From Candidatus Doudnabacteria bacterium (GTDB lineage Bacteria > Patescibacteriota > Doudnabacteria > UBA920): a DNA stretch of 64,000 nucleotides. Below, in pieces: positions 10,084 through 26,491 of this stretch (within the stretch, counting starts at the first letter, position 1; each line of letters opens with the position of its first letter). The stretch lies in contig JAEUSF010000001.1 of the NCBI GenBank assembly GCA_016788665.1, positions 48,222-112,221 of the forward strand, read 5' to 3'. Under the pieces are notes generated by a model. It had not been told where the DNA came from. It made no database searches and saw only the letters and a program-made list of their open reading frames with translations. The translations under genes and the position numbers were made by a program.

Positions 10084-10160
10084 TGGTGGGCGTGCCTGGA
10101 CTCGAACCAGGGACCCCGAAGGTATAAGCTTCGTGCTCTAACCAGCTGAGCTACACGCCC
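10084..10160 (-). tRNA. tRNA-Ile, anticodon UAU (reads AUA), CCA encoded
   Basis: Manual fold: GGGCGTG/TA/GCTC-AGCTGGTTA-GAGC/A/CGAAG-CTTATAC-CTTCG/GGGTC/CCTGG-TTCGAGT-CCAGG/CACGCCC/A/CCA. The D-arm is the canonical Ile type and the anticodon loop is CUUAUAC. Confidence 0.8.
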
Positions 10161-21376: not shown

Positions 21377-21671
21377 GAGTATGTGGTTATATGACCTAAA
21401 CTTTACGACATTGAAAGTATAACAAAAAACTTTTGGTAGTAACAGGTGTTTTGAAAATAGCAAACTCCGCGTCCGGAAGGTTGTTGGCCGCACTAAATTT
21501 GTGGAAATAAATTACCAAGCAAGCTTGGGACCACTTTCGTTTGATTCCTCTTTCACGCCATAAACTAAAAGAAATCGCCCCACCCATAAAGGGTGAGGCG
21601 TTTTCTTTTGGAGCTGCCTAGTTAAGGATGTTAGAACTATGGTTATGGGAAACAGTAAGTCCTTAGAGGTG

Positions 21672-23948
21672 TTAAAATTTTTCTTTTAAAGAATAAAACA
21701 TGTCATCAATTTGTTTGTACTCGGAAGAATCAGTACTCGACGAAGTTCTATAGTCTTCTGGGTCTATATCCACATATTTTTCATTTTCTAGCTCATGTAC
21801 CTTATGCTCTAGCTGTTTTTCAATTTCTTTAATATCAACTTCTAACTCCTCGCTTATTTCTCTAAAATCAGTTTTTAAATCCTCGTAGGAGCCTTCAGAA
21901 ACGTAATCAATTTCGTTTTCTAGTATATCATTTATTGAACTTTTTATTTCATCAGACAATTTAATTTTTTTATATTCCTCGGGAAAAATTTCCGCAAATT
22001 TAATAAAATATTTTACATCCTCAATTGACTCCATCGTTTTAGAAAAGAAATCGACAATGCCAGTTTTATCAAATTTGGTGAAAGGAGCAATTATTTCTAG
22101 TATATCAATATAAAAATTTTTATCTTCCCCTTTAATTTTATTATATTCAATATGTCCAAATATTTTAAAAACAAAATTCTGCCATTCCAAATCTTCGTTT
22201 AAACTCAAATTATTGATTGCTAATTTGAGTTTATATAAAATACTCGTCGACCTCCTAGCCCAATAATAAATAGCGTCAGCGCTAAAAGAATGTACAGTTC
22301 TTATCAAATGAGAGATTTTAAAATCAGAAAGTCCATTTTTTATATTTTCTTTAATTGTTTTAACTTGTTTTTTGCTTAGGATTATTTTTTCATTGCTCTC
22401 TTCATTAACCGAAAAAACTGTAAAAAATTGATTCAAAAAAATAACGTTCGTGATTAGGTCGTCAACTAAATCGGAATCTCTTTTTAGGTAATTTAGCAAA
22501 AAATCTTTGATTGAAGGATTTTGGAAGTCAATATATATTTGACCTCTTCCATCTCTTTTTGAAGATATGAATGTATTTTCAAGCTCCTTAATAGAGTCTT
22601 TTAATGAAAAGGAGTTAAAAGTAAAATTGTATTTTTTTGAATATTTTTGGGCAAATTTTATAAATGCTTCCTTTAAATCTTCAAATAACGCTGGGCCTCC
22701 CATAGAAAGCAAAACCATTAGTAAGCATTTGGAAAAATTAGTAATTTGCTTTTCATAACTGTGTTTCCATATCAATTCAGGGTTGTCTAGGTAATTAATA
22801 AATTTGTCAAAAAATTTTAAAGGCTTTATATTTTCCCAAATGCTAGGATTTGTAATAGTTTCAATTATCCTAGGATTATAATTGGGATGGTTAATAATAC
22901 CCATATAGTTTTTGTCCTCAAGGATGTTTTCTATATAGGGCTTGCTTATGTTTGAAAAATATAGATGATTGTATAAAATTCTTGACTTAACAAGTTTATT
23001 ATATTTTGATAAATCCAAAATACATTTTGCCAATTGAAGATTTTTATTATCTAGGCGTTCATAATTTACCAGGGCTTGATTTAAAATATATTCTCTTGTA
23101 GTCAGAATTAAGATTTTATTTTTAGATTTATTAACCAAGTCAATAAATTTAATTATTCTTTCATCCTCGTTGTTAGATATTTTATTTTCTAAAAAATTAG
23201 TTCCCAAAAAATCATCAAAAAGAAAAATTTGTTTTCTTTCAGGATTTAGAGCCTTGTATCCCTCCCCAATGTTATCAGATAAGTACACAAAATCTTCAAA
23301 GTCATTAGCCAAAAAATGATATACCAGTATTCTAGCCAATGTCGTTTTGCCTATACCTGGTATTCCCGATATTATTACGTACTTTTTTTTACTTAAGATT
23401 TCGAGAGCTTCGTTATAACTATCGTTCTCAACATACACTTTAATATTCTCTTTAATTGATTCTTCCTCGAAACTCGATTGATTGTATACTTTACTTTGTA
23501 CCAACTTTTCAAGAATAGAAGTACTAGATAACCATAACTTGAAATGTCTTTTTTCTACATCGGGGAATTTTCCGAGTAAATTATTTAAATCGCTTCTGCT
23601 GAAGATGTCATTAGGAGAAATGATTATAGGCTTACATAAATCAAAAATAGTTTGTTTTTGTTTTCGTGATAAAGGTGAGGATGTTGTTAGTATATATCTT
23701 TTTGGTTTAAGTTTAATCGCTTTTCCGGCCTCTTTTTTTATATTTGAAATTAAGGAATTATAATTTTCGTATCTTTTACACTGCACAATAATTGTTTCCT
23801 CTTTGTCTTGATAGCAACGTAAATCAATTCCACCATCTCGACCAGCAATAAAACTTTCCAGACGAATATTAAGGAATTTTTGAAGCAAGTCCCTAGACAG
23901 AACCTCAAATTCAATCGACGATAAATTTAAAAAATTATAAATATCCAT
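21672..23948 (-). CDS. Avs-like antiviral STAND protein: N-terminal Mrr-like PD-(D/E)xK nuclease + STAND (NB-ARC-type) NTPase + helical C-terminal domain
   Basis: Residues about 10-70: FEVLSRDLL...GRDGGIDLR...IIVQCKRY (Mrr_cat-like, D...QxK). Walker A VIISGIPGIGKTTLARIL, Walker B KQIFLFDDFLG, then ILILTTREYIL (NB-ARC/STAND TTR motif). About 430 aa helical C-terminus. 3-nt gap to the upstream OLD gene. Confidence 0.8.
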   Translation of the reverse strand: MDIYNFLNLSSIEFEVLSRDLLQKFLNIRLESFIAGRDGGIDLRCYQDKEETIIVQCKRYENYNSLISNIKKEAGKAIKLKPKRYILTTSSPLSRKQKQTIFDLCKPIIISPNDIFSRSDLNNLLGKFPDVEKRHFKLWLSSTSILEKLVQSKVYNQSSFEEESIKENIKVYVENDSYNEALEILSKKKYVIISGIPGIGKTTLARILVYHFLANDFEDFVYLSDNIGEGYKALNPERKQIFLFDDFLGTNFLENKISNNEDERIIKFIDLVNKSKNKILILTTREYILNQALVNYERLDNKNLQLAKCILDLSKYNKLVKSRILYNHLYFSNISKPYIENILEDKNYMGIINHPNYNPRIIETITNPSIWENIKPLKFFDKFINYLDNPELIWKHSYEKQITNFSKCLLMVLLSMGGPALFEDLKEAFIKFAQKYSKKYNFTFNSFSLKDSIKELENTFISSKRDGRGQIYIDFQNPSIKDFLLNYLKRDSDLVDDLITNVIFLNQFFTVFSVNEESNEKIILSKKQVKTIKENIKNGLSDFKISHLIRTVHSFSADAIYYWARRSTSILYKLKLAINNLSLNEDLEWQNFVFKIFGHIEYNKIKGEDKNFYIDILEIIAPFTKFDKTGIVDFFSKTMESIEDVKYFIKFAEIFPEEYKKIKLSDEIKSSINDILENEIDYVSEGSYEDLKTDFREISEELEVDIKEIEKQLEHKVHELENEKYVDIDPEDYRTSSSTDSSEYKQIDDMFYSLKEKF

Positions 23949-23951
23949 AAA

Positions 23952-25913
23952 TTAAAGAGACTGGAATAAAGTAGTTATAACGCTAGGTATGTTTTGTTTG
24001 TCTTTAATTACAGATTTTATTAATTTGCCACTTTTTTCTCCCTTACTTGGCAGGCAGGCTTTTTTCTCTTTATTACTATCAAGATAAACTTTGTCACTTA
24101 GTAGCTTGTAAAACTTATGTTCTCTATCATTCTTTAAATCTTTTCTAATTTCTCTAAAAACACTCTCGTCATAATTAAGACCGCAACACTCTTTTAAAAC
24201 TTCAATCCAAACGCTGTCGTCTATGGAATCTTCTAAGTCATAAGTCCCAATCAAAGTAATATTTTTAGCGGATAAAGCTGAATCAGAGTCAAGCAGGTAA
24301 TAAACATGTTCTTCGCTTTTTTGAAAGTTTTTTAAAAGCTCTTCAAACATAGTTTTATTTTTTTTACATTCATCTTTCCCCCCTAGATTAATAAGTTGAA
24401 TTGAATCCTGCATTAGTGTTCTTCCAAAATACAACTCATAAAAATAAGGTATTAAAATTTCTTCGGTGGGTCCTTCTACACACAAAAATTTATCGTAAAA
24501 TAAGAAGTCGCTACTTTTAACTTTTAATGAGTTTAGGACATCTTCAACATTAGAGCATTCTAAAATTTCAGAATAACCATCTTTCAAAGTAAAACGTTTT
24601 ATATTTTTAATGTTCAGTCTGTCAACAAAAATTGTCGAATGAGTGCTAACAAAAACTTGATAATAACTTTGAGATAATTTTTTTAAAATATTATATAAAT
24701 CTCTTTGAGCAGCAGGGTATAGATGAATTTCTGGTTCATCAAAACACCATAGAAATTTTTTTCTAATATCTTCAGTCGTTATTTTTTGTAAACTTGCCCA
24801 TTTAATAAATGCAAACCAAATCTGTTTTTTTACTCCCTCTCCTTGTGACTCCAGTCTTATATCACCATCACTACTAGTTTTATTTATCATAATATCTGAA
24901 ACATTTTCCTCAATATTAAAACTAACTGCTGCTTTTATGGCAGTAATATTTGGGAGTTCTTCAAAAAGATTGCCGGCTTTCCCTGCAAGTTCTTGATTTA
25001 CTTCTTGTGTAACGGTTTCACTGAGTTCCTTTGCACTTGTTTGCAGCGTATTTTTATATCCTTCTATTTTTGAAGCCATTGAATCAGCCGCAAGTTTTTC
25101 GACATCTTTTAGAGTTACGTTCCAGTCAATATAACGACAAACTGGGAAAAACCCCTTATCTTTTTTTACAAAATCTTTGTGCTCAGCCCAGCTTAGCTCC
25201 ACATCACTTTTACTATAAATTGCCCTAATCAATTCAATGTTTTTAAATCTCCCTTTTTTATTTTCGTTTACAACTTCATCATTTGAAATATCCAATTCAC
25301 CCTTTTTATCTTTTAAAAAAGTTTGATTTTGACTCCAAAGCTGTAATGGATTCGATTTTGTTTCTTTAAGGCAAACAAAATATTTACCCGAGGAATTTTC
25401 CTTTGTAAATTGCTTGAGTATATATAGTTTATTTTCGGTTAAACTTTCTATGCTCCACTTAAGTATGTTAGTCGAGCTTTCGACAAAATCTTCACTAATA
25501 TCTTTTTCTTCAATTTTAAACTCCCCGATTATTGTCGTTGTGTTTTCAGTAAAATTAAAGATGGGTAAATTTAACTTTTCAAAGATTGAGTTATAATCTA
25601 ACTCGCTTATGCCCGTGTTTGAAATATCTGAAGTTAATTGGCCTTCTTTCGCAATATGAAAAGTACTATCCGTTTCTAATAGTAAACAAATGGCTTTTAA
25701 AAAAACAGATTTTCCAGCATCATTTATGCCAATGAAAACATTTGGAATATCCGGCTGTAAATCGACTATGACGTTTTTACAACTTTTGTAATTTATAATA
25801 GCCAAACGTTCTAAAATCATATTGATATTTTTTATTAAAGGCACCGCTGAATCAATTATAGGCTTAATTTTGCGAACAAACAAGTATAAATTTGTACAAT
25901 TTTTTAAGAACAT
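23952..25913 (-). CDS. OLD-family (overcoming lysogenization defect) nuclease: ABC/AAA_15-type ATPase + Toprim
   Basis: Walker A FIGINDAGKSVFLKAI; long coiled insertion; Walker B/D-loop LWCFDEPEIHLYPAAQ; Toprim glutamate FLCVEGPTEEILIP and DxD YLLDSDS. A probable true start is the internal ATG at 25818-25820 (MILERLAIINYK...). Confidence 0.85.
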   Translation of the reverse strand: MFLKNCTNLYLFVRKIKPIIDSAVPLIKNINMILERLAIINYKSCKNVIVDLQPDIPNVFIGINDAGKSVFLKAICLLLETDSTFHIAKEGQLTSDISNTGISELDYNSIFEKLNLPIFNFTENTTTIIGEFKIEEKDISEDFVESSTNILKWSIESLTENKLYILKQFTKENSSGKYFVCLKETKSNPLQLWSQNQTFLKDKKGELDISNDEVVNENKKGRFKNIELIRAIYSKSDVELSWAEHKDFVKKDKGFFPVCRYIDWNVTLKDVEKLAADSMASKIEGYKNTLQTSAKELSETVTQEVNQELAGKAGNLFEELPNITAIKAAVSFNIEENVSDIMINKTSSDGDIRLESQGEGVKKQIWFAFIKWASLQKITTEDIRKKFLWCFDEPEIHLYPAAQRDLYNILKKLSQSYYQVFVSTHSTIFVDRLNIKNIKRFTLKDGYSEILECSNVEDVLNSLKVKSSDFLFYDKFLCVEGPTEEILIPYFYELYFGRTLMQDSIQLINLGGKDECKKNKTMFEELLKNFQKSEEHVYYLLDSDSALSAKNITLIGTYDLEDSIDDSVWIEVLKECCGLNYDESVFREIRKDLKNDREHKFYKLLSDKVYLDSNKEKKACLPSKGEKSGKLIKSVIKDKQNIPSVITTLFQSL

Positions 25914-25953
25914 CGTAGTATAAATTTGATTATTTGATTAACTAATCAAGCTA

Positions 25954-26148
25954 ATGCAACACGGCGGACAAAGACCAAATTCGGGTCGTCCCAAAGGTAG
26001 TAAATCGAAAAATACCCTAGAGCGTGAAGCCCTAAGGCAATTTATATTTGACGAGGTTAAACGGAACCAAAAGAAAATTGTCGCTGCGTTAATCCGCCAA
26101 GCCACAAAAGGGCAAAGAAAAGGTGTCAGGTACAATTTTAGCAAATGA
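25954..26148 (+). CDS. small basic DNA-binding-like protein with phage terminase-small-subunit-type N-terminal motif
   Basis: MQHGGQRPNSGRPKGSKSKNT... (GRPKGS motif common in phage TerS/HTH proteins). Divergent from the OLD-STAND operon across an inverted-repeat operator. Confidence 0.4.
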   Translation: MQHGGQRPNSGRPKGSKSKNTLEREALRQFIFDEVKRNQKKIVAALIRQATKGQRKGVRYNFSK

Positions 26149-26209: not shown

Positions 26210-26231
26210 TGGAGCGGCTAAGGGGAATCGA
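26210..26231 (-). repeat. 22-bp direct repeat of the tRNA-Gly 3' end (pseudo-tRNA fragment / att-like)
   Basis: tggagcggctaaggggaatcga is identical to 26418-26439. Confidence 0.8.
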
Positions 26232-26417
26232 CCCGCCCACGGTGGATTTTCAACTCCCTTTGGTTGTTTCAAATCTCACCTAACGCGGGCCCGTCACTAC
26301 CAAAAACTGCGCTCGCTCGCTTTTGGTTTCCGCCTTTGGCGGAACCGTTCCCGTTCGATTCCTCCAAGCCATTACAAACAAAAAATCCGATTACCGTAAA
26401 GGCAATCAGATTTTTTG

Positions 26418-26491
26418 TGGAGCGGCTAAGGGGAATCGAACCCCTATCCTCTCCATGGCAAGGAGAAGTTCTACCATTGAACCATAGCCGC
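26418..26491 (-). tRNA. tRNA-Gly, anticodon GCC
   Basis: GCGGCTA...TCTCC-TTGCCAT-GGAGA...GGGGG-TTCGATT-CCCCT-TAGCCGC-T-CCA. Confidence 0.85.

Follow-up and report, generated by a model that had tools for sequence, protein, structure and literature searches.

A stretch of 64,000 nucleotides (nt) from a Candidatus Doudnabacteria bacterium (GenBank assembly GCA_016788665.1, contig JAEUSF010000001.1, positions 48,222 to 112,221), referred to here in its full length as the window, carries on its minus strand two adjacent genes that encode an OLD-family nuclease (gene 1, the OLD gene) and a protein joining an Mrr-type nuclease to a STAND NTPase (gene 2, the STAND gene). An earlier interpretation, which we call the sequence-only reading, had proposed the pair as an undescribed two-gene defence system. 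The elements of the locus on which the argument depends are the following (aa, amino acids).

23952..25820, minus strand: gene 1, OLD-family nuclease of 622 aa, with the start common to its homologs (as first read, the frame extended to 25913)
24282..24503, minus strand: Toprim catalytic core of gene 1, E449-G450 ... D511-x-D513 in the 622-aa numbering, invariant in 41 homologs
21672..23948, minus strand: gene 2, Mrr-nSTAND3-helical C-terminal protein of 758 aa, equal to the PADLOC candidate PDC-S73
23469..23948, minus strand: Mrr-type PD-(D/E)xK nuclease module of gene 2 (aa 1–160), D38, D42 and Q56-x-K58 invariant in 43 homologs
22956..23435, minus strand: nSTAND3 P-loop NTPase of gene 2 (aa 172–331), with Walker A GIPGIGKTT, Walker B FLFDDF and the TREY sensor motif invariant in homologs
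21675..22955, minus strand: C-terminal region of gene 2 (aa 332–758), largely helical apart from two small beta hairpins, the least conserved part
21576..21600, minus strand: intrinsic-terminator-like hairpin and T-run 3' of the STAND gene, stem of 10 bp with 8 GC pairs
25821..25953, no strand assigned: divergent intergenic region, read from the sequence

Both open reading frames (ORFs) appear intact in the ORF list (23952..25913, 653 aa, and 21672..23948, 758 aa) and are separated by 3 nt, the junction being TAA-TTT-ATG; the translations and the junction sequence bear out the two frames, their spacing and every motif quoted for them earlier. The proteins are 100% identical to entries of a Candidatus Doudnabacteria metagenome-assembled genome on a 212-kb contig. 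The genes are spanned by a 4.6-kb low-GC insertion adjoining a tRNA cluster, and its composition is foreign to its surroundings: the GC content is 28.0% for the STAND gene and 30.6% for the OLD gene against 38–41% for the flanking genes, so the description of the locus as AT-rich (about 28% GC) holds. At third codon positions the GC content (GC3) of the two genes is 24–25%.

The hairpin behind gene 2 is the only strong terminator for the unit and none was found between the two genes, so that these are probably co-transcribed, to judge from the sequence signals, into one bicistronic mRNA whose promoter would lie ahead of the OLD gene. A putative promoter, TTGTTT-17-TATAAT, occupies positions 25883–25855 of the minus strand ahead of the OLD start codon. 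The divergent intergenic region also holds two imperfect 34-nt direct repeats (25868–25935) and a 7+7 palindrome, TTGATTA-AC-TAATCAA (25934–25949), which may serve as an operator. No recombinase, reverse transcriptase (RT) or helicase gene is present in the ORF list of the insertion, and Rfam finds only tRNAs and no other non-coding RNA at 21–28 kb.

Identity of the two proteins

The product of gene 1 consists of an ABC-type ATPase with an inserted helical domain followed by a C-terminal Toprim domain, and its translation contains FIGINDAGKS, CFDEPEIHLYPAAQ, CVEGPTEE and LLDSDS. It matches the Pfam profiles AAA_15 (2.9e-30), AAA_21 (1.1e-17) and OLD-like_TOPRIM (3.2e-10), and the ATPase residues G31/K37, D361-E362 and H394, which stand for Walker A, Walker B and the H-loop, are invariant across the same 41 homologs as the Toprim core. 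Judged by these profiles and residues gene 1 is, as had been claimed, a complete OLD-family nuclease, and its membership of the family is secure. Its true start is most likely 25820 and not 25913, because the deposited OLD protein (622 aa, 100% identical) and 41/41 aligned homologs begin at ORF residue 32 (MILERLAIINYKS), and a TATAAT box at 25855–25860 lies 34 nt upstream of the ATG at 25820.

The top PADLOC model for gene 1 is 'Old' (3.3e-38), above AriA and many GajA models, the latter lying far below. When a profile of the OLD clade was searched against PDB sequences, the best match was the class 1 OLD of Thermus scotoductus (TsOLD, 6P74; 3.5e-13) and no GajA sequence passed. In a Foldseek search with the AlphaFold2 model of the protein (pLDDT, the predicted local distance difference test score, 85.5), the predicted fold resembled GajA, TsOLD and Retron-Eco8 OLD about equally (E from 1e-13 to 4e-16).

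According to reviews of the family, no described OLD class is paired with a STAND protein, which agrees with what the sequence-only reading had assumed (PMC10568477, PMC12392090). Gabija shares with our locus the OLD fold, GajA structures being the top Foldseek matches together with TsOLD, and a two-gene layout in which the OLD gene comes first. The downstream gene here, however, encodes an Mrr-STAND NTPase and not the UvrD-like helicase GajB, and no helicase ORF is found at 21.6–26.2 kb. An extra helical insert in the Toprim domain is a further mark of class 2, and here the Foldseek scores of GajA and TsOLD against gene 1 were about equal. The RT and the msr/msd non-coding RNA that accompany class 3 OLD proteins (retron I-B) have no counterpart among the ORFs and Rfam matches of the locus. 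In class 4 (PARIS) the ATPase AriA and the Toprim protein AriB are separate, whereas both parts are fused in one ORF in gene 1, of which AriA models cover only the ATPase part.

Gene 2 carries GRDGGIDLR...VQCKRY, GIPGIGKTT, IFLFDDF and ILILTTREY in its translation and matches nSTAND3 (1.2e-53, aa 172–331) and Mrr_cat (7.7e-7, aa 8–95) in Pfam, an architecture common to more than 4000 of its homologs. Profile searches therefore support the Mrr and STAND assignments as they do the OLD one, and the Avs-like arrangement of Mrr nuclease, STAND NTPase and helical C-terminus stands; the NTPase, however, is of the nSTAND3 type and not of the NB-ARC type first ascribed to it, since NB-ARC and NACHT reach only E 0.04–0.07 compared with 1e-53 for nSTAND3. 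The PADLOC model PDC-S73 (PDLC05079) matches gene 2 from end to end (E 1.5e-161, 537.8 bits, protein residues 1–751 on model positions 1–749 of 752) with no architectural difference, PDC-S73 itself being a computational candidate. In PADLOC naming, the 'S' series stands for single-gene candidates. The other PADLOC matches are two Aga REase/TIR models, mad8 and TRIP13 only, and no Avs model is found at E<=0.1. A literature search for PDC-S73 found no paper mentioning the name.

The AlphaFold2 model of gene 2 (pLDDT 80.9) has as its best PDB matches in Foldseek Avs4 (8dgf), EfAvs5 (9jap), AVAST5 (9nc9), Avs3 (8dgc) and NLRC4, with 700–790 aligned columns in these predicted-fold comparisons and low TM-scores (0.2–0.3); a PDB sequence search returned P-loop noise only. 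With the Avs (AVAST) proteins gene 2 shares the tripartite layout of an N-terminal effector, a STAND NTPase and a C-terminal helical sensor. Avs4 is likewise an Mrr-type nuclease-STAND protein, and Avs5 has an NTPase of the nSTAND3 type (bioRxiv 10.1101/2025.07.08.663546). The effector of Avs5 is SIR2, whereas that of gene 2 is Mrr, so that gene 2 is not Avs5 proper. Avs3 and Avs4 are about twice as large as gene 2. By its domains and predicted fold, gene 2 would work like an Avs protein while falling outside Avs1–5, and in the model its C-terminal region is presumed to form a winged helix and a sensor domain. Since both gene products keep every family-invariant catalytic residue, neither should need the nuclease of the other.

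The Mrr-type head of gene 2 is also found fused to TIR proteins (PADLOC Aga_TIR-PNTD1-PNTD2, 7e-39), and TIR proteins of rhizobial plasmids (H26–H29; the L, P and H handles here and below are ours) carry it at 34–39% identity. Immune proteins apparently share this module as an effector or adaptor head that has been shuffled among them.

Genomic surroundings of the OLD and STAND genes

All ORFs of the fetched loci were searched with hidden Markov models of both the OLD and the STAND family. From the OLD side, 69 contexts were compared (62 genome loci of the clade and 7 further distinct contexts). An Mrr-nSTAND3 neighbour was present in just two of them, on the opposite strand each time: in L012 the two genes converge with overlapping stop codons, and in L015 they diverge across a 377-nt gap. 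Co-occurrence of OLD homologs with STAND genes is thus near-absent. The nearest OLD relatives (P0002, P0004, P0005 and P0006, 49–53% identity) are solitary and represent cargo of small Phage_CRI/integrase/resolvase elements, while other relatives stand convergent to a large serine recombinase or within conjugative elements.

The genes directly downstream of the OLD gene in this clade encode HsdS, HsdM, SbcD-like and DUF262-like proteins, the leucyl-tRNA synthetase LeuRS, RT, TIR and DUF2130 proteins and a family of about 343 aa. The gaps are 2–10 nt to the HsdS, HsdM, SbcD-like and TIR genes and 30 nt to LeuRS. Because such 2–10 nt gaps to mixed genes are frequent in the clade, the 3-nt gap of our pair carries little weight, and tight spacing had to be discarded as evidence of coupling.

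Comparison of individual loci is informative about the mobility of the STAND gene. L012 and L015 have only the STAND ORF in common (82% nt identity over 2319 bp), the OLDs next to it being divergent; the homology between L013 and L015 (78% nt) begins at the start of the OLD gene, and L013 has no STAND gene; and in L186, whose OLD is the sister of that of L012, a convergent recombinase takes the position of the L012 STAND gene, with no STAND gene between it and the OLD gene. In the light of these alignments the STAND gene behaves as a self-contained cassette that is independently inserted and moves alone.

The STAND side gives the same picture. The contexts comprised 80 metagenome loci, 5 viral loci, 4 close homologs on long contigs and 11 plasmids. 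The closest homologs on long contigs (P0125, P0127, P0144 and P0147) are solitary and have their own upstream regions of 220–290 nt, several of them lying between housekeeping genes, and the full-length plasmid homologs H1–H3 are solitary beside recombinases. An OLD-family gene with Toprim directly adjoins the STAND gene in about 7 of about 95 contexts: upstream in tandem with gaps of 44–131 nt (L071, L082 and L136), downstream (L146), convergent (L089 and L110) or divergent (L194). In L130 and L131 the neighbour is an AriA-like ATPase without Toprim. The adjoining OLDs fall into at least 8 mutually unrelated subfamilies (35–170 bits in an all-against-all comparison, L089/L110 excepted), which rules out the co-inheritance of one OLD subfamily with the STAND gene. 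The STAND proteins of L071 and L077 share 79% identity, and in L077 no OLD gene adjoins the STAND gene. Among viral contigs, 5 STAND loci and 10 distant loci with an OLD gene gave no case of co-occurrence, and both genes are uncommon in IMG/VR.

Together with the window, about ten OLD-STAND juxtapositions are known to us (L012, L015, L071, L082, L136, L146, L089, L110 and L194 being the others), of which four are in tandem with the OLD gene first, one is in tandem with the STAND gene first, three are convergent and two divergent. The partner gene is missing in more than 90% of the STAND contexts and in about 97% of those of the OLD clade. A multi-gene system is recognised by conserved co-occurrence, order and orientation, whereas adjacency here is limited to 2/69 and about 7/95 contexts, occurs in all four orientations and involves non-orthologous partners. 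The proposal of an undescribed two-gene OLD+STAND system consequently finds no support, and it is further weakened by the fact that gene 2 is already catalogued alone. Because the relatives of each gene nearly always occur without the other, we consider that the pair most likely represents two independent defences, that is to say two autonomous single-protein anti-phage modules that form the joint cargo of a small low-GC insertion, acquired horizontally and situated next to tRNA-Gly.

Several observations weigh against this interpretation. The 3-nt gap, the single terminator and the near-identical GC3 indicate that the genes are expressed together here, and they probably arrived together in the Doudnabacteria genome. 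The OLD tree has a broad half that is rich in members of the Candidate Phyla Radiation (CPR), and all three OLDs of the clade that adjoin STAND genes fall within it. OLD-family genes are the most frequent immediate neighbour family of the STAND gene: when the genes immediately next to the STAND gene in non-redundant loci (115 in all) were tallied by Pfam family, AAA_15 was counted 8 times and the OLD Toprim 6 times, followed by HTH_3 with 4 and all others with at most 2–3. On plasmids, the STAND gene is also flanked by ABC-type ATPases of several families in at least 4 of 11 cases, with plasmid H6 as a possible fifth case that has a weak SMC_N match only. The 'AAA family ATPase' neighbours on plasmids could not be retained as OLDs, Toprim being present in one of four and the others being AAA_13 or SMC-like.

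On a Rhizobium gallicum plasmid (L192:6402–9134) a second, different Mrr-STAND protein of 910 aa with Mrr_cat, NACHT/nSTAND1 and pentapeptide repeats is encoded directly downstream of the Mrr-nSTAND3 homolog, which makes a tandem of two Mrr-STAND genes.

The classes of OLD proteins are set in the field by genomic context (PMC10568477, PMC12392090), and it is by context only that gene 1 can be assigned; it is of the class 1 type, as its 69 clade contexts are mixed and its nearest relatives solitary, with the qualifications that a defence gene adjoins it in the window and that other OLD sublineages have conserved partners. Like the class 1 proteins P2 Old, TsOLD and Vc OLD, it is without a conserved helicase, RT or split partner, and like P2 old its clade is carried on mobile elements. 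It differs from them in that it is only about 14–15% identical to characterised members in structure alignments, belongs to a distinct clade that is rich in CPR and Bacteroidota, and is probably co-transcribed with another defence gene, whereas class 1 OLD genes have been described as not near such genes (PMC10568477).

The elements that carry these OLD genes are of several types: a Phage_CRI replication protein with an integrase or resolvase (L001, L003 and L184), an OLD gene facing a large serine recombinase (L010, L186 and L187), and an OLD gene alongside relaxase or type IV secretion system genes (L187 and L188). In the CPR-rich subclade that includes the OLD of the window, the gene is typically edge cargo of small integrative or conjugative elements, recalling the prophage-borne P2 old.

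Two other associations were noticed among OLD genes. A protein of about 343 aa is encoded 2–16 nt after the OLD gene in 10 of 11 loci (L007:6820–7848, L011:9871–10917, L027:9910–10938, L031:9908–10936, L034, L035, L038, L041, L056 and L064) and one gene further downstream in the remaining one, L037. Its copies are 61–80% identical, also when those of CPR and Bacteroidota are compared. It carries an invariant D...E-x-K motif (PD-(D/E)xK-like), tracks a monophyletic OLD subclade and often lies inside type I restriction-modification (RM) operons; its match to PDDEXK_15 is sub-threshold only and it has no PDB sequence match. Together with its OLD gene it has the look of a real two-gene OLD cassette, possibly one not yet described. 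DUF2130 proteins (PF09903, 5e-64) recur beside OLDs of at least two OLD subfamilies, either downstream (L006:9877–11061, L008:8032–9480, L009, L018, L019 and L047) or in another order (L016, L020 and L089). No model of PADLOC-DB v2.0.0 matches the 343-aa or the DUF2130 partner. DUF2130 is listed in the PD-(D/E)XK superfamily (PMC3424549).

If the modules are autonomous as we suppose, their action may be modelled on characterised relatives. For gene 1 the examples are P2 Old, TsOLD and Vc OLD (PMC10568477, PMC12392090, PMC12445682): the ABC-ATPase, which is a dimer in the solved class 1 OLD structure, would regulate a two-metal Toprim nuclease, and a cue from infection would lead the latter to nick or degrade nucleic acid. 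In gene 2, following the Avs example, the variable helical C-terminus may bind a phage protein, upon which ATP-dependent oligomerisation through the nSTAND3 NTPase would bring the Mrr PD-(D/E)xK heads together, so that DNA would be cut and the infection aborted. Either gene alone would be expected to confer protection.

Alternative explanations and the edges of the insertion

Rather doubtfully, the proximity of the two families may reflect facultative cooperation, in which separately functional OLD-type or ABC-ATPase genes and Mrr-nSTAND3 (PDC-S73) genes are selected to sit together, irrespective of orientation, across CPR, Bacteroidota and Proteobacteria, because they act in synergy or, for example, because the STAND protein is a guard sensing phage anti-OLD factors. 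The roughly ten direct juxtapositions, which are independent, and the position of OLD at the head of an otherwise unstructured set of STAND neighbours speak for such cooperation. Adjacency has also been kept while one partner diverged: the OLDs of L089 and L110 are 72% identical and their STANDs 37%, whereas the STANDs of L012 and L015 are 87% identical and their OLDs divergent. Synergy has been reported for Gabija, an OLD-containing system, with the P-loop NTPase Tmn (bioRxiv 10.1101/2022.08.21.504612). The large majority of contexts in which the partner is missing and the mixture of orientations nevertheless argue against it. The plasmid contexts are ordinary mixed islands with SIR2, HEPN, Mrr-NACHT and RM genes, and the enrichment of OLD near STAND loci (10/80, compared with a second OLD in 2/62 OLD loci) is rough and borderline. 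ABC-type ATPases of the AAA_15/AAA_21 kind are among the commonest families of defence islands, and a high baseline is to be expected for them.

A different view of the pair depends on the edges of the insertion, where the following features were found.

26418..26491, minus strand: tRNA-Gly(GCC), the first of the tRNA cluster
26210..26234, plus strand: partial duplicate of the tRNA-Gly 3' end, 24/25 nt identical to 26418–26442, with 0 such matches expected by chance
25954..26148, plus strand: small basic ORF, DUF5681-like, 64 aa, pI 11.6, with a host-like GC content of 43%

The cluster at 26.4–27.8 kb comprises tRNA-Gly, Phe, Val and Leu. The att-like tRNA-Gly repeat pointed out previously is real, but it brackets 183 bp only and leaves the OLD and STAND genes outside; at the left end (about 21600) there is a 14-nt weak resemblance to it and no copy within 3 mismatches. 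An integrative element bounded by tRNA-Gly repeats around the pair is thereby ruled out. The divergently transcribed small basic gene and its palindrome, also noted before, are present, but the gene is a remnant. Its family (98 matches) has homologs of 95–144 aa, the similarity ends near residue 54 and the DUF5681 score is below threshold, all of which shows the ORF to be a C-terminally truncated DUF5681-like gene; given its GC content it lies outside the low-GC cassette. No homolog of it occurs in any fetched OLD or STAND locus, and being truncated, host-like in composition and without counterpart in related loci, it is not supported as a dedicated regulator of the pair. On the sequence evidence, the 25-nt duplicate and the truncated ORF look like scars of older integration and deletion at the tRNA.

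These remains could be taken to mean that the two genes do not primarily serve host defence and are decaying or selfish genes carried by an integrative element that has itself degraded, engaged in competition between elements or in addiction, analogous to the prophage interference of P2 Old, and possibly unexpressed or useless to the CPR host. The insertion has no recombinase and abuts the tRNA-Gly scar and the truncated gene, and the closest OLD homologs ride small Phage_CRI or recombinase elements. Both ORFs are intact and full-length, however, with all family-invariant residues kept, and such a scenario differs from that of two autonomous modules mostly in the beneficiary and not in the mechanism. 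We find it improbable.

Very unlikely is an obligate two-gene system, in which the OLD and Mrr-STAND proteins form one machine (with, for instance, the STAND protein sensing and the OLD protein executing) and neither works alone: the 3-nt spacing, the single transcription unit, the common composition and the same tandem order in L071, L082 and L136 would suit it, but it is contradicted by the mixed orientations, the non-orthologous partners, the absence of the partner from more than 90% of contexts and of any conserved co-occurrence, order or co-phylogeny, by the complete effector and NTPase motifs of both proteins, by the overwhelmingly solitary occurrence of a gene 2 family catalogued as a single-gene candidate, and by the truly conserved 343-aa and DUF2130 partners elsewhere in the OLD clade, which show what real linkage looks like.

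Two features away from the pair may be recorded. ARAGORN predicts a tRNA-Ile with the anticodon TAT at positions 10084–10160 of the window, and a tRNA-Ile of this kind is uncommon in bacteria. The GC skew, at first about 0, stays at +0.2 to +0.3 beyond about 38–42 kb (window positions of about 38000–64000), and the AT skew changes sign there; judging by the base composition, this switch could be a change in gene-strand bias or a replication landmark.

Implications

The associations of OLD with the 343-aa protein and with DUF2130 may be better leads for new two-gene OLD systems than the OLD+STAND pair. Were the facultative association to prove true, OLD nucleases and STAND sensors would furnish a new instance of cooperation, and the pair in Doudnabacteria, coupled at 3 nt, would be its tightest example.

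Regarded as two autonomous modules, the pair is a cautionary case, since a 3-nt gap and a common transcript do not turn two defence genes into one system. CPR genomes are small, with few defence genes, and the locus adds to the genome of one such bacterium, a member of the Doudnabacteria, divergent members of both the class-1-type OLD nucleases and the Avs-like Mrr-nSTAND3 (PDC-S73) proteins.

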